Virus record (IMG/VR): IMGVR_UViG_2802429220_000018
Location: 1 to 18,478 of that record
Reading direction: 5' to 3' (one strand)
DNA length: 18,478 bases
Source: a virus
Taxonomy: Duplodnaviria; Heunggongvirae; Uroviricota; Caudoviricetes
Positions within the stretch are counted from its first letter, which is position 1; each line of letters starts with the position of its first letter. Under the pieces are notes generated by a model. It was given only the letters and a program-made list of their open reading frames with translations. It was not told the origin of the DNA and did no database searches. The translations under genes were made by a program, and so were the position numbers. Below are positions 3,109 through 18,478 of the stretch, in pieces.

Positions 3109-5662
3109 ACCGGTAGGCGATCTGGTCGTTGATTTAAGTCTGGATGCGGCCAGATTTGACGAGCAGATGGCCAGAGTCAGGCGTCATTTTTCCGGTACGG
3201 AAAGTGATGCGAAAAAAACAGCGGCAGTCGTTGAACAGTCGCTGAGCCGACAGGCGCTGGCTGCACAGAAAGCGGGGATTTCCGTCGGGCAGTATAAAGC
3301 CGCCATGCGTATGCTGCCTGCACAGTTCACCGACGTGGCCACGCAGCTTGCAGGCGGGCAAAGCCCGTGGCTGATCCTGCTGCAACAGGGTGGTCAGGTT
3401 AAGGACTCCTTCGGCGGGATGATCCCCATGTTCCGGGGGCTTGCCGGTGCGATCACCCTGCCGATGGTCGGGGCCACCTCGCTGGCGGTGGCGACCGGTG
3501 CGCTGGCGTATGCCTGGTATCAGGGTAACTCAACCCTGTCCGATTTCAACAAAACGCTGGTCCTTTCCGGTAATCAGGCGGGACTGACGGCAGATCGTAT
3601 GCTGGTCCTGTCCAGAGCCGGGCAGGCTGCAGGGCTGACGTTTAACCAGACCAGCGAGTCACTCAGTGCACTGGTTAAGGCGGGGGTAAGCGGTGAGGCT
3701 CAGATTGCGTCCATCAGCCAGAGTGTGGCGCGTTTCTCCTCTGCATCCGGTGTGGAGGTGGACAAGGTCGCTGAAGCCTTCGGGAAGCTGACCACTGACC
3801 CGACGTCGGGGCTGACGGCGATGGCGCGCCAGTTCCATAACGTGACGGCGGAGCAGATTGCGTATGTTGCTCAGTTGCAGCGTTCCGGCGATGAAGCCGG
3901 GGCATTGCAGGCGGCGAACGAGGCCGCAACGAAAGGGTTTGATGACCAGACCCGACGCTTGAAAGAGAACATGGGCACGCTGGAAACCTGGGCAGACAGG
4001 ACAGCACGGGCATTCAAATCCATGTGGGATGCGGTGCTGGATATTGGTCGTCCTGATACCGCTCAGGAGATGCTGATTAAGGCAGAGGCTGCGTTTAAGA
4101 AAGCGGACGACATCTGGAATCTGCGCAAGGATGATTATTTTGTTAACGATGAAGCGCGGGCGCGTTACTGGGATGATCGTGAAAAGGCCCGTCTTGCGCT
4201 TGAAGCCGCCCGAAAGAAGGCTGAACAGCAGAGTCAACAGGACAAAAATGCGCAGCAGCAGAGCGATACCGAAGCGTCACGGCTGAAATATACCGAAGAG
4301 GCGCAGAAGGCTTACGAACGGCTGCAGACGCCGCTGGAGAAATATACCGCCCGTCAGGAAGAACTGAACAAGGCACTGAAAGACGGGAAAATCCTGCAGG
4401 CAGATTACAACACGCTGATGGCGGCGGCGAAAAAGGATTATGAAGCGACGCTGAAAAAGCCGAAACAGTCCGGCGTGAAGGTGTCTGCGGGCGATCGTCA
4501 GGAAGACAGTGCTCATGCTGCCCTGCTGACGCTTCAGGCAGAACTCCGGACACTGGAGAAGCATGCCGGAGCGAATGAGAAAATCAGCCAGCAGCGCCGG
4601 GATTTGTGGAAGGCAGAAAGTCAGTTCGCGGTACTGGAGGAGGCGGCACAACGTCGCCAGCTGTCCGCACAGGAGAAATCCCTGCTGGCGCATAAAGACG
4701 AGACGCTGGAGTACAAACGCCAGCTGGCTGCACTTGGCGATAAGGTCACGTATCAGGAGCACCTGAATGCGCTGGCGCAGCAGGCGGATAAATTCGCACA
4801 GCAACAACGGGCAAAACGGGCAGCCATTGATGCGAAAAACCGGGGGCTGACTGACCGGCAGGCAGCGCGGGACGCCACGGAACAGCGCCTGAAGGAACAG
4901 TATGGCGATAATCCGCTGGCGCTGAATAGCGTCATGTCAGAGCAGAAAAAGACCTGGGCGGCTGAAGACCAGCTTCGTGGGAGCTGGATGGCAGGCCTCA
5001 GGTCAGGCTGGAGTGAGTGGGAAGAGAGCGCCACGGACAGTATGTCGCAGGTTAAAAGTGCAGCCACGCAGACCTTTGATGGTATTGCACAGAATATGGC
5101 GGCGATGCTGACCGGCAGTGAACAGAACTGGCGCAGCTTCACCCGTTCCGTGCTGTCCATGATGACAGAAATTCTGCTTAAGCAGGCAATGGTGGGGATT
5201 GTCGGGAGTATCGGCAGCGCCATTGGCGGTGCTGCCAGTGGTGGCGCATCAGCGTCAGGCGGTACAGCCATTCAGGCAGCTGCGGCGAAACTCCATTTTG
5301 CGACCGGAGGATTTACGGGAACCGGCGGCAAATATGAGCCAGCGGGGATTGTTCACCGTGGTGAATTTGTCTTCACCAAGGAGGCAACCAGCCGGATTGG
5401 CGTGGGGAATCTTTACCGGCTGATGCGCGGCTATGCCACCGGCGGTTATGTCGGTACACCGGGCAGCATGGCGGACAGTCGGTCGCAGGCGTCCGGGACG
5501 TTTGAGCAGAATAACCATGTGGTGATTAACAACGACGGCACGAACGGTCAGATAGGGCCACAGGCGCTGAAGGCTGTTTATGACGTAGCCCGTAAGGCGG
5601 CAATGGATGTTGTGACCGGGCAGATGCGTGATGGTGGTCTGTTCTCCGGAGGTGGACGATGA
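3101..5662 (+). CDS. H: Tail tape measure protein gpH (853 aa)
   Basis: ATG 3101 overlapping the end of T. MAEPVGDLVVDLSLDAARFDEQMARVRRHF..., length 853 aa, coiled-coil-rich middle and glycine-rich C-terminus, as in lambda H. Confidence 0.95.
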   Translation: MAEPVGDLVVDLSLDAARFDEQMARVRRHFSGTESDAKKTAAVVEQSLSRQALAAQKAGISVGQYKAAMRMLPAQFTDVATQLAGGQSPWLILLQQGGQVKDSFGGMIPMFRGLAGAITLPMVGATSLAVATGALAYAWYQGNSTLSDFNKTLVLSGNQAGLTADRMLVLSRAGQAAGLTFNQTSESLSALVKAGVSGEAQIASISQSVARFSSASGVEVDKVAEAFGKLTTDPTSGLTAMARQFHNVTAEQIAYVAQLQRSGDEAGALQAANEAATKGFDDQTRRLKENMGTLETWADRTARAFKSMWDAVLDIGRPDTAQEMLIKAEAAFKKADDIWNLRKDDYFVNDEARARYWDDREKARLALEAARKKAEQQSQQDKNAQQQSDTEASRLKYTEEAQKAYERLQTPLEKYTARQEELNKALKDGKILQADYNTLMAAAKKDYEATLKKPKQSGVKVSAGDRQEDSAHAALLTLQAELRTLEKHAGANEKISQQRRDLWKAESQFAVLEEAAQRRQLSAQEKSLLAHKDETLEYKRQLAALGDKVTYQEHLNALAQQADKFAQQQRAKRAAIDAKNRGLTDRQAARDATEQRLKEQYGDNPLALNSVMSEQKKTWAAEDQLRGSWMAGLRSGWSEWEESATDSMSQVKSAATQTFDGIAQNMAAMLTGSEQNWRSFTRSVLSMMTEILLKQAMVGIVGSIGSAIGGAASGGASASGGTAIQAAAAKLHFATGGFTGTGGKYEPAGIVHRGEFVFTKEATSRIGVGNLYRLMRGYATGGYVGTPGSMADSRSQASGTFEQNNHVVINNDGTNGQIGPQALKAVYDVARKAAMDVVTGQMRDGGLFSGGGR

Positions 5663-5988
5663 AAACCTTCCGCTGGAAAGTGAAACCCGGTATGGATGTG
5701 GCTTCGGCCCCTTCTGTAAGAAAGGTGCGCTTTGGTGATGGCTATTCCCAGCGAGCGCCTGCCGGGCTGAATGCCAACCTGAAAACGTACAGCGTGACGC
5801 TTTCTGTCCCCCGTGAGGAGGCCACGGTACTGGAGTCGTTTCTGGAAGAGCACGGGGGCTGGAAAGCCTTTCTGTGGACGCCGCCTTATGAGTGGCGGCA
5901 GATAAAGGTGACCTGCGCAAAATGGTCGTCGCGGGTCAGTATGCTGCGTGTTGAGTTCAGCGCAGAGTTTGAACAGGTGGTGAACTGA
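5659..5988 (+). CDS. M: Tail tip assembly protein gpM (109 aa)
   Basis: ATG 5659 overlaps the H stop (ATGA). MKTFRWKVKPGMDVASAPSVRKVRFGDGYSQRA... matches lambda M. Confidence 0.93.
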   Translation: MKTFRWKVKPGMDVASAPSVRKVRFGDGYSQRAPAGLNANLKTYSVTLSVPREEATVLESFLEEHGGWKAFLWTPPYEWRQIKVTCAKWSSRVSMLRVEFSAEFEQVVN

Positions 5989-6686
5989 TGCAGGATATCC
6001 GGCAGGAAACACTGAATGAATGCACCCGTGCGGAGCAGTCGGCCAGCGTGGTGCTCTGGGAAATCGACCTGACAGAGGTCGGTGGAGAACGTTATTTTTT
6101 CTGTAATGAGCAGAACGAAAAAGGTGAGCCGGTCACCTGGCAGGGGCGACAGTATCAGCCGTATCCCATTCAGGGGAGTGGTTTTGAACTGAATGGCAAA
6201 GGCACCAGTACGCGCCCCACGCTGACGGTTTCTAACCTGTACGGTATGGTCACCGGGATGGCGGAAGATCTGCAGAGTCTGGTCGGCGGAACGGTGGTCC
6301 GGCGTAAGGTTTACGCCCGTTTTCTGGATGCGGTGAACTTCGTCAACGGAAACAGTGACGCCGATCCGGAGCAGGAGGTGATCAGCCGTTGGCGCATTGA
6401 GCAGTGCAGCGAACTGAGCGCGGTGAGTGCCTCTTTTGTACTGTCCACGCCGACGGAAACGGACGGCGCTGTTTTTCCGGGACGTATCATGCTGGCCAAC
6501 ACCTGCACCTGGACCTATCGCGGCGATGAGTGCGGTTATCACGGTCCGGCGGTCGCGGATGAATATGACCAGCCAACGTCCGATATCACGAAGGATAAAT
6601 GCAGCAAATGCCTGAGCGGTTGTAAGTTCCGCAATAACGTCGGCAACTTTGGCGGCTTCCTTTCCATTAACAAACTTTCGCAGTAA
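5988..6686 (+). CDS. L: Tail tip protein gpL (232 aa)
   Basis: ATG 5988 overlaps the M stop (TGATG). MQDIRQETLNECTRAEQSASVVLWEIDLTEVGGERYFFCNE... matches lambda L, including the C-terminal Cys cluster. Confidence 0.93.
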   Translation: MQDIRQETLNECTRAEQSASVVLWEIDLTEVGGERYFFCNEQNEKGEPVTWQGRQYQPYPIQGSGFELNGKGTSTRPTLTVSNLYGMVTGMAEDLQSLVGGTVVRRKVYARFLDAVNFVNGNSDADPEQEVISRWRIEQCSELSAVSASFVLSTPTETDGAVFPGRIMLANTCTWTYRGDECGYHGPAVADEYDQPTSDITKDKCSKCLSGCKFRNNVGNFGGFLSINKLSQ

Positions 6687-6691
6687 ATCCC

Positions 6692-7435
6692 ATGACACAG
6701 GCAGAATCAGCGATTCTGGCGCACGCCCGGCGATGTGCGCCAGCGGAGTCGTGCGGCTTCGTGGTAAGCACGCCGGAGGGGGAAAGATATTTCCCCTGCG
6801 TGAATATCTCCGGTGAGCCGGAGGCGTATTTCCGTATGTCGCCGGAAGACTGGCTGCAGGCAGAAATGCAGGGTGAGATTGTGGCGCTGGTCCACAGCCA
6901 CCCCGGTGGTCTGCCCTGGCTGAGTGAGGCCGACCGGCGGCTGCAGGTGCAGAGTGATTTGCCGTGGTGGCTGGTCTGCCGGGGGACGATTCATAAGTTC
7001 CGCTGTGTGCCGCATCTCACCGGGCGGCGCTTTGAGCACGGGGTGACGGACTGTTACACGCTGTTCCGGGATGCTTATCATCTGGCGGGGATTGAGATGC
7101 CGGATTTTCATCGCGAGGATGACTGGTGGCGTCACGGTCAGAATCTCTATCTGGATAATCTGGAGGCCACAGGGCTGTATCAGGTGCCGTTGTCATCAGC
7201 ACAACCGGGCGATGTGCTGCTGTGCTGTTTTGGTTCATCGGTGCCGAATCATGCCGCCATTTACTGTGGTGATGGCGAGCTGCTGCACCATATTCCTGAA
7301 CAACTGAGCAAACGAGAGAGGTATACCGACAAATGGCAGCGACGCACACACTCCCTCTGGCGTCACCGGGCATGGCACGCATCTGCCTTTACGGGGATTT
7401 GCAACGATTTGGCCGCCGCATCGATCTTCGTGTGA
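6692..7435 (+). CDS. K: Tail tip assembly protein gpK (247 aa; JAB/MPN plus NlpC/P60-like)
   Basis: ATG 6692. MTQAESAILAHARRCAPAESCGFVVSTPEGERYF...HSHPGG... matches lambda K; the 3' end overlaps the start of I in another frame, as in lambda. Confidence 0.9.
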   Translation: MTQAESAILAHARRCAPAESCGFVVSTPEGERYFPCVNISGEPEAYFRMSPEDWLQAEMQGEIVALVHSHPGGLPWLSEADRRLQVQSDLPWWLVCRGTIHKFRCVPHLTGRRFEHGVTDCYTLFRDAYHLAGIEMPDFHREDDWWRHGQNLYLDNLEATGLYQVPLSSAQPGDVLLCCFGSSVPNHAAIYCGDGELLHHIPEQLSKRERYTDKWQRRTHSLWRHRAWHASAFTGICNDLAAASIFV

Positions 7436-8004
7436 AAACGGGGGCTGAAGCTATCCGGGCGCTGGCCACACAGCTCCCGGCGTTTCGTCAGAAACTGAGC
7501 GACGGCTGGTATCAGGTACGGATTGCCGGGCGGGATGTCAGCACGTCCGGATTAACGGCGCAGTTACATGAGACTCTGCCTGATGGCGCTGTGATTCATA
7601 TTGTTCCCAGAGTCGCCGGGGCCAAGTCAGGTGGTGTATTCCAGATTGTCCTGGGAGCTGCCGCCATTGCCGGATCATTCTTTACTGCCGGAGCCACCCT
7701 TGCAGCATGGGGGGCAGCCATTGGGGCCGGTGGTATGACCGGCATCCTGTTTTCTCTCGGTGCCAGTATGGTGCTCGGTGGTGTGGCGCAGATGCTGGCA
7801 CCGAAAGCCAGAACTCCCCGTACACAGACAACGGATAACGGCAAACAGAACACCTATTTTTCCTCACTGGATAACATGGTTGCTCAGGGCAATGTTTTGC
7901 CTGTTCTGTACGGTGAAATGCGTGTGGGGTCGCGGGTGGTTTCTCAGGAGATCAGCACGGCAGACGAAGGGGACGGTGGTCAGGTTGTGGTGATTGGTCG
8001 CTGA
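7333..8004 (+). CDS. I: Tail tip assembly protein gpI (223 aa)
   Basis: ATG 7333 inside the K 3' end. MAATHTLPLASPGMARICLYGDLQRFGRRIDLRVKTGAEAIRALATQ... matches lambda I; ubiquitin-like N-terminus and Gly/Ala-rich hydrophobic segment. Confidence 0.9.
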   Translation: MAATHTLPLASPGMARICLYGDLQRFGRRIDLRVKTGAEAIRALATQLPAFRQKLSDGWYQVRIAGRDVSTSGLTAQLHETLPDGAVIHIVPRVAGAKSGGVFQIVLGAAAIAGSFFTAGATLAAWGAAIGAGGMTGILFSLGASMVLGGVAQMLAPKARTPRTQTTDNGKQNTYFSSLDNMVAQGNVLPVLYGEMRVGSRVVSQEISTADEGDGGQVVVIGR

Positions 8005-12200: not shown

Positions 12201-12211
12201 GTGGAGTGGAT

Positions 12212-14587
12212 ATGGCAGCAGTAAAAATCTCAGGTGTGCTGAAAGATGGTGCGGGAAAACCAATACAGAACTGCACTATTCAACTGAAGGCAAAGCGTAA
12301 CAGCACCACGGTACTGGTGAACACGGTGGCCTCTGAAAATCCGGATGAAGCCGGGCGTTACAGCATGGACGTTGAGTATGGCCAGTACAGCGTTATCCTG
12401 CTGGTTGAAGGTTTTCCGCCTTCACATGCCGGAACCATTACCGTCTATGAAGGTTCCAGACCAGGTACGCTGAATGATTTTCTCGGTGCCATGACGGAAG
12501 ATGATGTCATGCCGGAGGCATTGCGTCGTTTTGAGGCAATGGTGGAAGAAGCGGCACACAACGCTGAAGCCGCCTCTCAGAGCGCAGCGGCGGCAAAGAA
12601 ATCCGAAGCTGCTGCGGCATCATCGAAGAACGCGGCGAAAAGCTCAGAAACGAATGCAGCTAACAGCGCACAGGCGGCAGCGGCCTCACAGACTGCATCG
12701 GCAAACTCCGCGACAGCAGCCCAAAAATCAGAAACCAACGCGAAAAATAGCGAAACAGCCGCAAAGACGAGCGAAACCAACGCAAAGTCCAGCCAGACGT
12801 CAGCGAAAACAAGCGAAACGAATGCCAAAACCAGTGAAACTGCGGCGAAAAGCAGTCAGGCTGCAGCAGCCGAAAGCGAGAGTGCTGCAGCCGGTTCTGC
12901 GACTTCAGCAGCTGGATCAGCAACTGCTGCGGCTAACAGCCAGAAAGCAGCGAAGACGAGCGAAACTAACGCAAAGTCCAGCCAGACGGCAGCGAAGACC
13001 AGCGAAACGAATGCCAAAGCCAGCGAAACTGCGGCGAAAAACAGTCAGGATGCAGCGGCCCAAAGCGAGAGTGCCGCAGCTGGTTCTGCAAGTGCGGCGG
13101 CTTCTTCTGCCACTGCATCAGCCAACAGTCAAAAAGCTGCAAAAACCAGTGAAACCAACGCAAAGGCGAGCGAGACTGCGGCGGCTAACTCGGCGAAAGC
13201 ATCCGCTGCAAGCCAGACGGCTGCAAAAGCAAGTGAAGACGCAGCCAGAGAGTATGCAAGCCAGGCTGCGGAGCCGTATAAACAAGTTTTGCAGCCGCTT
13301 CCCGATGTGTGGATACCGTTTAACGATTCACTGGATATGATTACGGGCTTTTCGCCGTCATATAAAAAGATTGTTATTGGTGATGATGAAATAACGATGC
13401 CTGGCGATAAGGTTGTAAAGTTTAAACGCGCATCGAAAGCAACCTATATTAATAAATCTGGTGTGCTGACAGAGGCTGCCATTGACGAGCCACGATTTGA
13501 ACGTGATGGCCTGCTTATTGAGGGGCAAAGAACAAACTACATGCTCAATTCGGAAAACCCTGCCAGTTGGGGGCGATCGTCAAATATGGATGTTCCCGAA
13601 ACCGGGAAGGATAGTTTTGGTTTTACCTATGGAAAGTTTGTCTGTAACGATTCTCTGATTGGGCAAACCTCAGCCATTAATATGGCATCAATTGCTGCAA
13701 CAAAGTCAGTTGATGTCTCAGGCGATAATAAATACGTGACAACCTCATGTCGTTTTAAAACAGAACTGCAGGTAAGGTTGCGTATCCGGTTTGATAAATA
13801 TGACGGTAGCGCAACAACTTTTCTTGGTGATGCGTATATTGATACACAAACGCTTGAAATTAATATGACAGGCGGCGCTGCCTCAAGGATTACAGCGAGA
13901 GTCAGAAAGGACGAAGCTACCGGATGGATTTTTGCAGAGGCAACAATTCAGGCAATTGATGGGGAGTTAAAAATAGGTTCTCAGATACAGTATTCTCCTA
14001 AGCAGGGCGGGGCAACCGTATCTGGTGACTATATTTATCTGGCCACCCCACAAGTAGAAAATGGGCCTTGTGTATCATCTTTTATTATATCAGGAACGAC
14101 GGCGGCGACCCGCGCAAGCGATATAGTTACAGTTCCCATTAAGAATAATCTTTATAATCTTCCTTTTACGGTTCTTTGTGAGGTACATAAGAACTGGTAT
14201 AAAACGCCAAATGCAGCGCCGCGTGTTTTTGACACCGGCGGTCATCAAACCGGAGCGGCAATTATTCTTGGATTCGGTTCTTCAGCAGATTACGACGGAT
14301 TTCCTTATTGCGATATTGGAGGAGCTAACAGACGGGTAAACGAAAACGCATTGCTTGAAAAAATGGTTATGGGGATGCGTGTAAAGTCAGATCAGTCTAC
14401 GTGCTCAGTAAGTAACGGGCGTATATCCAGCCAAACAAAAACCACATGGTCCTATATTCAGAACACCGCAATTATCCGTATTGGAGGCCAAACTACAGCC
14501 GGGTTACGTCATTTATTTGGTCATGTCAGGAATTTCAGAATATGGCACAAGGCATTGACTGATGCTCAGGTGGGGGAGTCAATCTAA
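12212..14587 (+). CDS. stf: Side tail fibre protein (Stf-like, 791 aa from ATG 12212): lambda-like N-terminus, Ala/Ser/Thr/Lys-rich repeat shaft, non-lambda C-terminal domain
   Basis: ATG 12212 with GGAG about 6 nt upstream (the track start 12206 is a GTG two codons earlier). The N-terminus MAAVKISGVLKDGAGKPIQNCTIQLKAKRNSTT... matches lambda Stf as I recall it. The central region is built of KTSETNAKSSQTAAK-type repeats; the C-terminal approx 440 aa is not like lambda Stf, but I did not compare the C-terminus carefully. Confidence 0.85.
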   Translation: MAAVKISGVLKDGAGKPIQNCTIQLKAKRNSTTVLVNTVASENPDEAGRYSMDVEYGQYSVILLVEGFPPSHAGTITVYEGSRPGTLNDFLGAMTEDDVMPEALRRFEAMVEEAAHNAEAASQSAAAAKKSEAAAASSKNAAKSSETNAANSAQAAAASQTASANSATAAQKSETNAKNSETAAKTSETNAKSSQTSAKTSETNAKTSETAAKSSQAAAAESESAAAGSATSAAGSATAAANSQKAAKTSETNAKSSQTAAKTSETNAKASETAAKNSQDAAAQSESAAAGSASAAASSATASANSQKAAKTSETNAKASETAAANSAKASAASQTAAKASEDAAREYASQAAEPYKQVLQPLPDVWIPFNDSLDMITGFSPSYKKIVIGDDEITMPGDKVVKFKRASKATYINKSGVLTEAAIDEPRFERDGLLIEGQRTNYMLNSENPASWGRSSNMDVPETGKDSFGFTYGKFVCNDSLIGQTSAINMASIAATKSVDVSGDNKYVTTSCRFKTELQVRLRIRFDKYDGSATTFLGDAYIDTQTLEINMTGGAASRITARVRKDEATGWIFAEATIQAIDGELKIGSQIQYSPKQGGATVSGDYIYLATPQVENGPCVSSFIISGTTAATRASDIVTVPIKNNLYNLPFTVLCEVHKNWYKTPNAAPRVFDTGGHQTGAAIILGFGSSADYDGFPYCDIGGANRRVNENALLEKMVMGMRVKSDQSTCSVSNGRISSQTKTTWSYIQNTAIIRIGGQTTAGLRHLFGHVRNFRIWHKALTDAQVGESI
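12764..13250 (+). repeat. In-frame tandem repeat of a 189-bp unit (about 2.5 copies) inside stf, with more degenerate 21-bp sub-repeats extending upstream to about 12590
   Basis: Unit starts aagacgagcgaaaccaacgcaaagtccagccagacg at 12764 and 12953, with a diverged third copy at 13142; this gives two near-identical 63-aa protein blocks. Confidence 0.8.
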
Positions 14588-14868
14588 TGAAAGATTTAAC
14601 ACTCAAATTTGCCGACAGGGCCGACTTTTCGGCCTTTATGGAGAGTACTGGCTATTATGATGACGAGTCGATGCAGGATGATATTCTTATTGACGTGATA
14701 GGTAACGTGTACAAAGAAACCGGAGAACTGAATGAAGATGGCGAACCGGTATGTGTTAAGGAAGACGGATATTTTGTAAACGTGCGCATCATTAATGATG
14801 TGAAAACACCATCAATATTCGATGAATACGTGGTTGCTGTTGAGCATCAACTTCGTGGCTGGATGTGA
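14587..14868 (+). CDS. Hypothetical small acidic protein (93 aa), translationally coupled to stf; candidate fibre chaperone or adaptor
   Basis: ATG 14587 overlaps the stf stop (TAATG). D/E-rich, no hydrophobic segment. It occupies the position where lambda carries tfa but does not resemble lambda Tfa. Confidence 0.55.
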   Translation: MKDLTLKFADRADFSAFMESTGYYDDESMQDDILIDVIGNVYKETGELNEDGEPVCVKEDGYFVNVRIINDVKTPSIFDEYVVAVEHQLRGWM

Positions 14869-14877
14869 GGAAGAATA

Positions 14878-15918
14878 ATGGCTACATCGACAGTAATTCC
14901 TGATGACATCAAAACGCTAAAATCCGATGTTAGTAAACTAAAAAACGATCAAGGAAGCTACGCAACAAAATCATATGTAGACAGCAAAGATGAAACCGTT
15001 GGTGACTGGTCTGCTTCATGGTATCAGCAGGTATTGCCAACTAGCGGAGCTATATTTGGGAGAAAACTCCGCTCAACTCACAGGACGGCAGGTGTTGAGG
15101 ATGCGTATTGCGAACTATACCTCAAAAAATGGATAGACAGTCCAGGTAACGCAATGGCGCGCCTTAACCTGAACGATAACGGGACAAACATTTGCTGGGA
15201 CTTTACCAACCTTTATGGCGGTACGATGATTTTTCCCGGTGACAGCGGATACCTCAAAATGGGTGACTGCCTTATGTCATACAGCAAGCGTGGAAGTAAC
15301 GCGCTTATTAAATTTGATTACACCGACACATTACAGATCAAATATGCTAATCATGGGTCAACCATGACATTAAACACACAGGGAACCGCTCACGCTGGCG
15401 TAACAACTAGACTATGGGGTAATTCTAGCCGTCCGGTTGTTTATGAAGTTGGCGTAGATGAGGCTCTGTATATGTTCTACGCACAGAAAACTACCAGCAA
15501 TACCTACGAATTAACGGTTAACGGCGCGTGCAATGCAAGTGCATTTAATCAAGGCTCCGACCGGGATCTGAAAGACAATATTCAGGTGATCGATAATGCA
15601 ATCGACCGCATTCGTAAAATGAACGGCTATACATACACGCTTAAAGAAAACGGTATGCCTTACGCTGGTGTTATTGCACAAGAAACCCTGGAAGCCATCC
15701 CCGAAGCCGTAGGGTCTATGATGAAATATCCAGACGGCGGGAGTGGATTAGATGGAGAAGAAGGTGAACGGTATTACACTGTAGATTATTCTGGTGTTAC
15801 TGGCTTGCTTGTTCAGGTAGCCAGAGAGTCAGACGACAGGATAACAGCACTGGAAGAAGAAAACGCAGAATTAAGACAAAGATTATCTGCAATTGAGGCG
15901 GCGCTTGCGTCTAAATAA
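14878..15918 (+). CDS. Tail fibre / tailspike-like protein (346 aa) with C-terminal intramolecular chaperone autoproteolytic domain (Peptidase_S74 type, about residues 227-346)
   Basis: ATG 14878 with GAGGAAG upstream. The C-terminal motif SDRDLKDNIQVIDNAIDRIRKMNGYTYTLKE....GVIAQETLEAIPEAV fits the conserved SDxxxKxNI ... GxxYxxK ... GVIAQEV..P signature of the endosialidase / T5 L-shaped-fibre C-terminal chaperone, followed by a coiled-coil-like tail. Confidence 0.7.
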   Translation: MATSTVIPDDIKTLKSDVSKLKNDQGSYATKSYVDSKDETVGDWSASWYQQVLPTSGAIFGRKLRSTHRTAGVEDAYCELYLKKWIDSPGNAMARLNLNDNGTNICWDFTNLYGGTMIFPGDSGYLKMGDCLMSYSKRGSNALIKFDYTDTLQIKYANHGSTMTLNTQGTAHAGVTTRLWGNSSRPVVYEVGVDEALYMFYAQKTTSNTYELTVNGACNASAFNQGSDRDLKDNIQVIDNAIDRIRKMNGYTYTLKENGMPYAGVIAQETLEAIPEAVGSMMKYPDGGSGLDGEEGERYYTVDYSGVTGLLVQVARESDDRITALEEENAELRQRLSAIEAALASK

Positions 15919-15922
15919 TATT

Positions 15923-15946
15923 AAGGGGCCGAGCGCCCCGTTTTAT
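15923..15946 (+). terminator. Weak candidate terminator hairpin after the fibre-like gene
   Basis: ggggc-cgagc-gcccc stem-loop (15925-15939) followed by GTTTTATT; short stem and interrupted T tract. Confidence 0.35.
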
Positions 15947-15960
15947 TGGGTAGGATGAAA

Positions 15961-16254
15961 ATGGATATAACACCTTTCCTTCATGCTCTTTGTGCTGTGG
16001 CTGCGCAGCTACTGATTGGTCTTTTTACCGGGAACTGGGCTTACGGAGCGATAGCCGGTTGTACGTTCTTCATTGCGCGTGAACACACCCAGGCAGAATA
16101 TCGCTGGATTGAAATGTTCGGGCATGGCAAGCGTATGAATATGCCGTGGTGGGGCGGTTTTGATCCACGCGCGTGGGATGTGGCAAGCATGATGGATTTT
16201 GCTGTGCCGGTGGTGGCGTGTCTGCTGGTCTGGCGGTTAGTTAATCGTGGGTGA
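15961..16254 (+). CDS. Hypothetical small membrane protein (97 aa from ATG 15961; two predicted hydrophobic segments)
   Basis: ATG 15961 with AGGA 5 nt upstream (the track's 15946 start is a TTG; ATG 15955 is also possible). Hydrophobic stretches FLHALCAVAAQLLIGLFTG...AIAGCTFFIA and MMDFAVPVVACLLVWRLV. No family recognised. Confidence 0.5.
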   Translation: MDITPFLHALCAVAAQLLIGLFTGNWAYGAIAGCTFFIAREHTQAEYRWIEMFGHGKRMNMPWWGGFDPRAWDVASMMDFAVPVVACLLVWRLVNRG

Positions 16255-16700
16255 AAAAGCATGTTTAGTGTACTTTCCCGAAACTGATAGTAAGTGGCGA
16301 GATTAATTACCTGCTTCAGACTGAATGATTTTTTGCAAGCGCCACAGAAGTAATAGGGGTGAGTGAAAAAATATTATATATTAATGAATTGCGTTATTGC
16401 ATCATCAGCTCAAAATGATGAATAACTAGAATTCCTGTCATAGCATTAATGGCTGAATTGGTGGGATGATATATCAGATAGAGTATCAATAAAAGCTGGA
16501 ATGCATGTGGATTCAAATGGTTTTTGGCTAGATGATACTTATATCATATATTATATGAAGTATTTTAATGTTGCTCTGGAGGGAAATAGTGAGAGATGCA
16601 CGGCGAAGCACGTCTTGAACTAAATATACACAAGTAAATCATGCTTTCGCCGCTGTATTAGAGCTTTGTTTCAGATTTGTTAATCGCCAGGTATTACCCC

Positions 16701-16735: not shown

Positions 16736-18478
16736 TCATAATTTGTTAATGGCAATTTTAACTGTTCTGTTTAGATCGTATATGGCTCCAAATTTAAAGC
16801 TTTCTTTATAGGAAAGGCAAAAAATATCAAGTTTTTGACTAAGATAAATAAGTTTGTTTTTTTCATTAGTGGCGAATTGTTTTATGTTGCTGATTTGATA
16901 GTTGCTACGCAAGAAAGAACTAAATTGCTCAATATCATTAACTGCCCAATTCTTTAAAACGCATTTTGTTACAAATGATACACCTAGTACTTCAAGCGGC
17001 TTATAATTTCCGAATGGATCTAAAGTGGTTAATTGGTTAGCATTGAATGATGCCCAGCCATTCAATTCTAATTGCAACTTAATAGTGTTGAGTTCACGCA
17101 TTTTGATCGTGCTTTCATAACGGTAAAATGAAATTGAGTACAGCAATTTGCTATCTTCAAAACCACTATTTAAGCTATTTTTTCTATCAAGTGAGTATAG
17201 CTCAAAGCATTCTGCAACTTCATTGTCAGTGAATCCGTTCAGAATCGAAGTGACAAACTTTAGAGTTATAATTGGTGATTTTGGTAGGTATTTATGTGTG
17301 GTTAAATACTCATAATTCTGAAACGCTTTTATCCATTCATAGAAATTACAGTCAATCTTACGGCAAATTAAGTCGACAAGTGTATTTGAAAGTTCCTTTT
17401 CATTTATCTCATGTAATTCTGGACGTGCTGATATTGCAATTTCTCTCATAGTAAGCCGTTTTGCTTCATAAAACAAAACATCCAATATGTCATTTAATGA
17501 AGCTTGTCCGCTATAATACCTTTTAATCTCAGGTTTTATTTTGTAATTATTCAATGCTAACCATAGCACTCTCTCACTATCACTTGATTTCTCGGTGTTT
17601 AATAAAAAAGTTGGATCTTTGTCCTTGAGAAGATCCTCAAGAGAGTGATTATGCAAAAATAATAAAATGAAGAAAGAGCATATTGAGTTTAAAAGAATTG
17701 TTGATGGTATTCGCCAAGAAAGATGAGGATATGATTTAACGTATTCATATAATGGCGTAACTGTGTCCAAAATACGCATCAAAATACGGATGTTAACTAT
17801 GTTGTTATTTTTTACTATATCCTCAAAGAGAATTTTATCTTCCTGTGGGAATTGGGAAAGCTTTCCATTTATTATATCTATATCCAATATTTCCTCTGGA
17901 TGCGGATTATAATGAAGTGTTTCTGCAATGAGTTTTTCCTTGTGTTCTATTTTTAAACCAGACTCAGTTGATGTATTGGTAATAATAATAAAGTCTAAAT
18001 TTGAGTTCATCTCGGACATATAAAGAGAATGGCAATATGTCAAAATTTCACTAACTAATGATTTTTCGGATATTCTCTCTATATCATCCAATATAAAAAT
18101 ACCATCCAGTTTTGATAAAATGTTTTCTCTAACACTTGCACCAATAGAATTAAACATGCTGTTAATAATATTGGCACTTGCAGGTGAGCCGCTGGCAATG
18201 CTACCTATCCCTGATAGACTTTCGAGCCCGGATTTAAATGTTTGTATATCTTGCAGGTAGTAACAATCTATAATTTTAGCTTTGAAATCTGATAAGGATT
18301 TAATACCTAGTAAAGAAATATAATAGAAAATGTTTTTATCATAGTACTTGGGGAATTTTTTTCTGATAAAGTGAGTCTTTCCTGTGCCCCAGCTCCCATC
18401 AAGCAAAATCAGACCATCTCTTTTTTGTGAAAGTAGATGTATTATTTTTATAATAAGATTGCTGTTAGAGTATTTCAT
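16736..18478 (-). CDS. KAP-family P-loop NTPase (580 aa); AT-rich, likely horizontally acquired cargo; start codon at the last window base
   Basis: Minus-strand ORF with ATG at 18476-18478 and TGA at 16736-16738. Walker A in the KAP form GSWGTGKT (residues 28-35, LLDGSWGTGKTHF); Walker B-like IFILDDIER (compare the KAP DDLDR motif). The DNA is strongly AT-rich compared with the tail genes. Confidence 0.7.
   Translation of the reverse strand: MKYSNSNLIIKIIHLLSQKRDGLILLDGSWGTGKTHFIRKKFPKYYDKNIFYYISLLGIKSLSDFKAKIIDCYYLQDIQTFKSGLESLSGIGSIASGSPASANIINSMFNSIGASVRENILSKLDGIFILDDIERISEKSLVSEILTYCHSLYMSEMNSNLDFIIITNTSTESGLKIEHKEKLIAETLHYNPHPEEILDIDIINGKLSQFPQEDKILFEDIVKNNNIVNIRILMRILDTVTPLYEYVKSYPHLSWRIPSTILLNSICSFFILLFLHNHSLEDLLKDKDPTFLLNTEKSSDSERVLWLALNNYKIKPEIKRYYSGQASLNDILDVLFYEAKRLTMREIAISARPELHEINEKELSNTLVDLICRKIDCNFYEWIKAFQNYEYLTTHKYLPKSPIITLKFVTSILNGFTDNEVAECFELYSLDRKNSLNSGFEDSKLLYSISFYRYESTIKMRELNTIKLQLELNGWASFNANQLTTLDPFGNYKPLEVLGVSFVTKCVLKNWAVNDIEQFSSFLRSNYQISNIKQFATNEKNKLIYLSQKLDIFCLSYKESFKFGAIYDLNRTVKIAINKL

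Follow-up and report, generated by a model that had tools for sequence, protein, structure and literature searches.

The DNA analysed here, referred to as the window, is the virus record IMGVR_UViG_2802429220_000018 (Caudoviricetes) of IMG/VR, 18,478 nucleotides (nt) long, and our subject is the gene of 97 codons at positions 15961-16254. Upstream of it lie, in order, lambda-like tail genes, Lom (Pfam Ail_Lom, E-value (E) 1.5e-118), a side tail fibre of 793 amino acids (aa) (Stf; Pfam phage_tail_N, E 2.9e-66), a 93-aa open reading frame (ORF), and a 346-aa fibre protein that carries the Peptidase_S74 intramolecular-chaperone domain (Pfam). Downstream, a convergent gene for a KAP-family P-loop NTPase (16736-18478, minus strand) is cut by the end of the window. 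The guanine-plus-cytosine (GC) content is 44-47% upstream, 52% in the gene, and 30-36% downstream. An original prediction, made from the sequence without database searches, had placed the gene behind fibre genes and ahead of an AT-rich stretch, which the Pfam matches and the GC profile bear out. Our analysis indicates with high confidence that this is a genuine gene whose product is a stand-alone protein of the inner membrane, about 97 residues long and built from a helical hairpin, a Trp-rich loop, and a third helix; that it belongs to PHROG 1443; and that in Escherichia coli prophages it forms a one-gene cassette, in every case the final cistron on that strand behind the side-tail-fibre genes. 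It is a non-structural accessory gene, probably transcribed together with the late operon.

Gene, Start Codon, and Family

The ORF runs from an ATG at 15961 to a TGA stop at 16252-16254, and RefSeq holds an identical 294-nt coding sequence (CDS), WP_001551179.1, named 'hypothetical protein'. Two other in-frame starts precede it (TTG at 15946 and ATG at 15955). Because homologues in other genomic settings begin with M-D-I/L-T/S-P straight after an AAGGAGG Shine-Dalgarno sequence, and because RefSeq calls the same CDS, the start was taken as 15961. AAGGAGG stands at the same distance in the other two upstream configurations found in E. coli (see below), whereas the window has just AGGA; its ribosome-binding site is adequate and does not deserve the label 'strong' that it had been given. 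Among 28 distinct E. coli alleles, the mean nonsynonymous divergence (dN) is 0.013 and the mean synonymous divergence (dS) 0.126, a ratio of 0.10. The 97-codon ORF is a real gene, not a chance ORF, and its product is under strong purifying selection.

The protein matches PHROG 1443 with E 5.6e-58 and 194 bits, residues 1-96 aligning with profile positions 1-96 of 97. PHROG 1443 is annotated as of unknown function, as are 34165 and 9191 (E 0.1), the only other families that PHROGs returns. Searches of Pfam and NCBIfam give no family for the protein, the best Pfam hit being PhoR with E 0.11; PADLOC gives no defence match; a profile search of the PDB yields only a chance match (E 0.6); and there is no fold relative. 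The earlier statement that no family could be recognised thus holds for Pfam and NCBIfam, and for function, but not for PHROGs. We found nothing in the literature on the 97-aa protein or on PHROG 1443.

A word-seeded search of a 5.8-billion-protein set returned 568 relatives, and a profile search returned 446 clusters at 50% identity; among the 150 matches listed, all are 63-146 aa long. A second search, with a Sphingomonadales seed, added 706 further relatives. Names in the source databases are limited to 'hypothetical', 'Ybl63' (the UniRef name of one close E. coli cluster), and one stray 'Lgt' label: UniRef calls one Aeromonas member 'Prolipoprotein diacylglyceryl transferase', which we set aside because no Pfam LGT match lies behind it. 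Of 5426 complete E. coli genomes, 2068 (38%) carry the gene, at a median of 2 places per genome and up to 8, and phage 21 is one of the reference phages that have it. Even so, the 40 E. coli records listed call it a 'hypothetical protein' or give it no feature. Judged from these searches, the family appears to be PHROG 1443 alone, widespread and uncharacterised.

Anatomy of the Protein

Hydropathy separates two hydrophobic blocks, residues 3-39 and 71-95, which agrees with the two hydrophobic segments originally described. However, an AlphaFold2 model built on a 61-sequence alignment (pLDDT 94.6, pTM 0.79) places helices at residues 4-23, 26-53, and 74-96 around a structured loop (54-73); the protein is taken to have three helices because the model splits the first block into a tight helical hairpin. 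The hydrophobic part of helix 2 is about 14 residues long, and the helix continues as the near-invariant, amphipathic stretch R40-E41-x-T-Q44-A-E46-Y-R48-W-I. The loop follows the pattern G-x-G-K-R58-x-N-M-P62-W-W-G-G-F-D68-x-R-x-W72. Among 168 full-length family members of no more than 70% identity, H8, R40, E41, Q44, A45, E46, R48, R58, W72, D79, and P83 are 91-100% conserved; the PWWGGFD part of the loop is less so. Helices 1 and 2 both carry GxxxG motifs. Since H8, R40/E41, and D79 stand a few residues from the same helix end, they should form one polar cluster at one membrane interface, a placement that comes from secondary structure rather than from coordinates. The features of the locus are collected in Table 1.

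Table 1. Features at the 97-aa gene and in the fibre module before it
Feature	Position	Strand	Basis
Side-tail-fibre module ended by the 97-aa gene (793-aa Stf, 93-aa ORF, 346-aa S74 protein)	12206-15918	+	Pfam, RefSeq names
Weak terminator-like hairpin (GGGGC-CGAGC-GCCCC) plus GTTTTATT, between the S74 fibre stop and the 97-aa gene	15925-15946	+	Consensus scan
Shine-Dalgarno-like AGGA, 8 nt ahead of the ATG	15949-15952	+	Read from the sequence
CDS, 97 aa, three-helix inner-membrane protein of PHROG 1443 (very probable)	15961-16254	+	ORF, profile match, RefSeq CDS, dN/dS, homology block
Helix 1, residues 4-23, with near-invariant H8, Q16, and G20xxxG24 motif	15970-16029	+	AlphaFold, conservation
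Helix 2, residues 26-53: hydrophobic 26-39 (G29xxxG33), then amphipathic stretch	16036-16119	+	Hydropathy, AlphaFold, conservation
Trp-rich conserved loop, residues 54-73	16120-16179	+	AlphaFold, conservation
Helix 3, residues 74-96, with D79 and P83, then basic C-terminal tail	16180-16248	+	Hydropathy, AlphaFold, conservation

The orientation in the membrane is signalled in more than one way. Across the 168 members, lysine plus arginine amount to 5.9 per sequence on the side of the N-terminus and the loop and to 1.7 on the opposite side, a bias that argues for a cytoplasmic loop. The alphaproteobacterial members have very basic C-terminal tails, which favours a periplasmic loop, as does the TMHMM note in the phage 21 record (N-in, C-in). 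The same record notes a cleavable signal peptide, which we regard as unlikely, since a basic n-region is missing from the N-terminus and the segment includes the conserved H8, Q16, and GxxxG. A likeness of PWWGGFDxRxW to the Trp-rich WWD heme-handling motif of CcmC and CcmF was likewise dropped, there being no match to Pfam Cytochrom_C_asm at E up to 1. In a few members of 140-146 aa the conserved loop is enlarged, between the QAEYRWIE helix and MPWWGG, by some 45 hydrophilic residues; the loop therefore tolerates a soluble insertion.

A One-Gene Cassette in E. coli Prophages

When 84 related loci were aligned to the window, similarity began at 15960, one base before the ATG, in 48 of them and ended at 16254-16258, up to 4 nt past the stop, in 76; the homology block 15960-16258 is found in most. 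The next gene upstream is of only three kinds and encodes a 234-aa S74-domain protein in 39 loci, the 346-aa S74 protein in 32, and a 92-aa ORF in 11, so a protein that is more than 90% identical follows three different upstream genes. The gap to the upstream gene is about 10-12 nt in the 234-aa and 92-aa configurations and 42 nt in the 346-aa configuration of the window. Downstream there are at least 18 kinds of neighbour, on either strand, and 30 provirus calls end right after the gene. The 97-aa gene is thus an exchangeable one-gene cassette that brings no regulatory DNA with it and, by position, closes the fibre (late) operon.

The arrangement of the window recurs in E. coli strain 2452 (NZ_CP031833.1), where it is followed by thrS, and the gene therefore sits at the boundary between fibre and cargo genes. 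In that strain (locus 16590-20555) the fibre module and the 97-aa gene belong to a heavily deleted DLP12-like prophage, in which a partial rrrD lysozyme gene is joined without a gap to a fibre gene that has lost its 5' end; the 93-aa, 346-aa, and 97-aa genes are all intact, and the KAP-family NTPase gene is the last one ahead of thrS. Phage 21 (OL657228.1) has Stf, the 92-aa ORF, and the family gene, there called 'putative membrane protein', followed by sitABCD on the other strand. This complete iron/manganese ABC transporter (4386-7835) lies directly downstream of the family copy and illustrates the variable cargo behind it. A 108-kb ParA-encoding plasmid-like phage has the order J, Stf, 92-aa ORF, and family gene.

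Expression

Consensus scanning found no plus-strand promoter-like site within about 360 nt upstream of the gene in the window and none within about 1 kb upstream in either of the other two configurations; the scan used a sigma-70-like consensus only, and weak promoters may escape it. Nor did it find a plus-strand terminator-like site between 16254 and 17000. The weak hairpin upstream of the gene (Table 1) has an unexceptional fold energy (z -0.78) and is confined to the 346-aa configuration. Of the features that mark a moron, the gene lacks a promoter and a downstream terminator of its own and shows insertion between syntenic genes with a deviant composition (52% GC versus its flanks).

In phage phiHAP-1, phage JEP4, and a Leclercia HP1-like prophage, as well as in Comamonas, Acidovorax, Halomonas, and Desulfovibrio prophages, the start of the family gene overlaps or abuts the stop of the preceding gene, which encodes a fibre, a tailspike, or a tail-fibre-assembly protein. 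Expression accordingly seems to go with the late operon and not to be specific to the lysogen. On balance, we expect that the gene lacks a promoter of its own and depends on the late, Q-antiterminated transcript. Within the window, this transcript would have to pass the weak hairpin before it reached the 97-aa gene, and any expression in the lysogen would stem from read-through.

Copies in Other Phages

Family members occur in lambdoid, P22-like, P2/HP1-like, and jumbo phages. In the P22-like phage JEP4 the tailspike gene is followed by an overlapping family gene and then by int, and in the P22-like phage 611R6 the order is tailspike, O-acetylase, a 38-aa fibre remnant, family gene, and int; P22 itself keeps its gtrABC conversion genes at that spot. 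Halomonas phage phiHAP-1 has the family gene between its tail-fibre-assembly gene and its sheath gene, and the Leclercia HP1-like prophage has it behind a 939-aa S74 fibre. It also comes after a distal fibre or spike gene, or the chaperone gene of one, in a second Leclercia locus and in Pantoea, Comamonas, Sphingobium, and Desulfovibrio prophages. Holin-like ORFs or endolysins come next in some Comamonas, Pantoea, and Acidovorax prophages. In prophages of Comamonas nitrativorans and Pigmentiphaga humi the family gene is followed directly by the Avd gene of a diversity-generating retroelement (DGR) (phrog_3206, E 1e-44; region about 4785-6690 of each locus). A gene of 370-383 aa lies just upstream there, and if it were the variable target of the DGR, the insertion would lie inside the DGR cassette. 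Intact 87-aa homologues are carried by a P22-like Aeromonas phage and by 235-kb Aeromonas jumbo phages.

In T1-like phages the gene has decayed. Escherichia phage 6947 (ON637251.1), which has no annotated integrase or repressor, contains an unannotated 51-aa remnant (34129-34284), reading ...RRANIPWWGGFDWRAWDLPSLLD, directly behind an S74 fibre gene (859 aa) that is intact; phages ZCEC08, PBM-3, and HC8A give the same partial match. The S74 fibre therefore does not need the family gene: the gene is not tied to one type of fibre and is dispensable for at least one S74 fibre. The T1-like remnants also suggest that the 3' end of the fibre gene and the linked gene were acquired jointly from a temperate phage, after which the small gene decayed.

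Copies in Bacterial Chromosomes

Counting phages and chromosomes together, the family spans Alpha-, Beta-, Gamma-, and Deltaproteobacteria; a peptide-pattern search located 70 loci among 185,579 species genomes. In Sphingomonadales one type of neighbourhood is a histidine-kinase (two-component)/GGDEF region, and another has the order RmuC, family gene, DSBA-family gene, the last two overlapping, in a region that also contains def, recR, and fmt. In one Sphingomonadales-like contig (8001-8971) the stop of the homologue overlaps the start of the DSBA thioredoxin-fold gene (Pfam DSBA, E 5.5e-39), which may be an operon partner; other chromosomal contexts did not show it. The family gene lies just downstream of ligA in four genomes, where LigA is 70-78% and the small protein 60-67% identical, an agreement that speaks for vertical inheritance. 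The chromosomal copy in Aeromonas stands between Pirin (upstream) and RIO1 (downstream), and polB, lipid A acyltransferase genes, and a YbaK-like gene are in the vicinity; Pirin is directly upstream in the loci of two Aeromonas species (Pfam).

Possible Functions

The 97-aa protein is an uncharacterised member of a familiar class, the phage accessory membrane proteins. That it protects the cell, most likely by excluding incoming phage genomes at the inner membrane, or else by resisting some other attack on the envelope, is the reading that we prefer, though tentatively. A benefit to the cell is suggested because the gene is intact in a deleted prophage remnant and occurs as a lone chromosomal gene in Aeromonas and Sphingomonadales, because it survives as no more than a remnant in T1-like phages lacking an annotated integrase or repressor, and because it lies between tailspike and int in P22-like phages. 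The protein would then act alone in the cytoplasmic membrane, where H8, R40/E41, Q44, E46, and D79 would form an interfacial cluster with the PWWGGFD loop as its cap; this cluster would act on a conserved envelope component, either by binding or by altering it. The outcome would be protection of the infected or lysogenic cell, most likely through a block to genome entry, and the gene would be accessory 'cargo' rather than a component of the virion or of its assembly. Superinfection exclusion or lysogenic conversion, which had been proposed from the position of the gene, is plausible but supported only in part. It gains from the finding of a non-structural cassette where fibre and cargo genes meet, intact in a deleted prophage and placed between tailspike and int in P22-like phages; it loses from the missing promoter, the link to the late operon, and the lack of a match to any known exclusion, conversion, or defence family.

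Several observations weigh against a protective role. The polar motif hardly varies between members as distant as those of E. coli, Sphingomonas, and Desulfovibrio, and such near-invariance in four proteobacterial classes is unlike a fast-evolving, phage-specific exclusion factor; this conservation looks more like that of an enzyme, or of an interaction with a housekeeping partner, than like the product of an arms race. The ligA synteny points to long vertical inheritance of a cellular gene. Intact copies reside in the 235-kb Aeromonas jumbo phages. There is no promoter in the conserved block or upstream of it in the three E. coli configurations, the terminator-like hairpin of the window lies upstream of the gene with none downstream, and expression looks linked to the late operon rather than lysogen-specific. 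PHROGs, Pfam, and PADLOC provide no exclusion, conversion, or defence family for the protein, and no likeness in sequence or profile was found to Imm, SieA, HK97 gp15-like proteins, Cor, Llp, GtrA, or the PADLOC systems. The topology cues, moreover, conflict, lysine plus arginine indicating a cytoplasmic loop and the C-terminal tails and the TMHMM note a periplasmic one.

An equally serious alternative, and one that we hold just as tentatively, is that phages have captured a cellular inner-membrane function (an enzyme, a binder of a ligand or ion, or a regulator of some universal envelope process) and carry it as an auxiliary gene that adjusts the envelope physiology of the host late in infection or in the lysogen, without any direct part in conflicts between phages. 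Chromosomal copies among housekeeping genes in Sphingomonadales and Aeromonas, the near-invariant His/Arg-Glu/Gln/Glu/Asp set together with the GxxxG helix motifs, the dN/dS of 0.10, and the occurrence of the family in temperate, jumbo, and plasmid-like phages alike would all fit such a function. Against this, Pfam, NCBIfam, and PDB searches reveal no likeness to any enzyme or transporter family or fold, the family is patchy among species (70 loci with the peptide patterns used), its chromosomal neighbourhoods share no functional theme, and the gene decays in T1-like phages. A combined version, which we consider rather doubtful, would make the 97-aa gene the phage-borne branch of an undescribed, old inner-membrane family, syntenic and vertically inherited in Aeromonas and Sphingomonadales, with an enzyme-like or ligand-binding cluster under a Trp cap, and repeatedly captured by tailed phages of several morphotypes as the terminal cistron of receptor-binding operons in order to modify or block a universal component of the envelope.

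Other roles that the position of the gene might suggest have less in their favour. A membrane protein associated with lysis (a holin, an antiholin, or a lysis-timing factor) at the end of the late transcript is unlikely. Class I holins do have this size and layout, with three helices in about 100 residues and a C-terminal tail that is basic. An Acidovorax prophage has, right behind the family gene, an endolysin gene whose product bears a hydrophobic anchor at its N-terminus, and then a lipoprotein-like ORF; in Pantoea and Comamonas prophages the gene overlaps the following ORFs, which are multi-transmembrane and holin-like and come with an endolysin or a spanin-like set. However, domain matches and RefSeq names disclose no lysis gene near the 97-aa gene in the window, no Pfam or PHROG holin family is matched, and a long, highly conserved polar loop would not be expected in a holin. 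The holin reading was downgraded because the Comamonas and Pantoea cassettes already hold separate holin-like proteins and because the syntenic chromosomal copies have no endolysin nearby. Holin topology is N-out, C-in; the three helices and the basic tail are there, and the cues to orientation are mixed, the bias in lysine plus arginine favouring the opposite one.

It is very improbable that the protein is a helper of the upstream fibre or is associated with the virion. In very different phages the gene does lie directly behind a distal fibre, a tailspike, or its chaperone, often with translational coupling. Yet the same protein stands behind three upstream genes in E. coli and behind unrelated fibres and spikes in other hosts, hydropathy and AlphaFold make it an integral membrane protein, T1-like phages have an intact S74 fibre with a decayed family gene behind it, and lone chromosomal copies exist. 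Slighter still are the chances that the DNA serves mainly as a conserved 'linker', helping fibre and cargo modules to be exchanged by homologous recombination, with the protein dispensable. An island of 300 bp with 90-100% nucleotide identity, sharp edges, and variable flanks is what such a linker would look like, but the dN/dS of 0.10 means selection on the protein, and distant homologues with 45-60% amino-acid identity keep the motif after nucleotide similarity has gone.

Comparison with Known Systems

With HK97 gp15, T4 Imm, and P22 SieA, the 97-aa protein would share the character of a small, non-structural inner-membrane protein that is encoded in the tail or late region and acts alone. 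It has no sequence or profile similarity to them and, unlike these exclusion proteins, PHROG 1443 has syntenic chromosomal members and a motif that extends over four proteobacterial classes. HK97 gp15 is, in addition, a moron with its own promoter, whereas the scans reveal none for the 97-aa gene. T5 Llp and the Cor proteins of phi80, N15, and HK022 are likewise small envelope proteins encoded beside a receptor-binding or tail-fibre gene, but they are outer-membrane lipoproteins specific to one receptor (FhuA), whereas the 97-aa protein is a polytopic inner-membrane protein that follows many unrelated fibres. The gtrABC genes of P22 and the Oac acetylases resemble it in encoding membrane proteins and in position, the family gene lying between tailspike and int in JEP4 and 611R6, in the latter with an O-acetylase beside it. 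They differ in that ours is a single 97-aa protein with no GtrA or acyltransferase match in Pfam and with homologues in Sphingomonadales, which are not known to have lipopolysaccharide O-antigen. Finally, class I holins such as lambda S share with it the length of about 100 aa, the three helices, the basic tail, the place among the late genes, and, in a few beta- and gammaproteobacterial prophages, the lysis neighbours; the 97-aa protein differs in its 35-residue conserved polar loop, in having no endolysin neighbour in the window, and in lacking a family match. A preprint on Hf4s seroconversion was rejected as a match, as it concerns GtrABC. Identity with the Tai/Ati tail-assembly-interference system was also rejected, that system being encoded elsewhere in phi80 and targeting J or needle proteins (PMC11364771).

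If the protein blocks phage entry or changes the envelope, the result would bear on host range in phage therapy and on the competition between E. coli prophages, and it would give a function to a family that is common to phages and to the chromosomes of Aeromonas and Sphingomonadales. Were the combined version outlined above true, the gene would represent a new, receptor-independent kind of envelope conversion or exclusion. Such a new envelope function, common to phage and cell, is in our view a long way from probable. If the protein is merely a minor accessory one, the corrected anatomy remains: three helices, no promoter of its own, the last late cistron, and cellular homologues.

Other Observations

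The gene for the KAP-family NTPase downstream lies in an island of 30-33% GC; its product matches Pfam KAP_NTPase (E 8.3e-07) and the PADLOC candidate defence system PDC-S49 (E 6.9e-16). No RNA family was found in the window with Rfam. In strain FFFEB2 (NZ_OZ001728.1, 1082572-1084349) an IS1A element splits the 1-kb query region into two pieces. Within the Stf gene, positions 12731-13183 hold a 189-nt tandem repeat of 2.3 copies (82% matches) with nested periods of 21 and 42 nt, which encodes a shaft rich in Ala, Ser, Thr, and Lys (KSSETNAK... repeats) and has an AT skew of 0.5-0.6.

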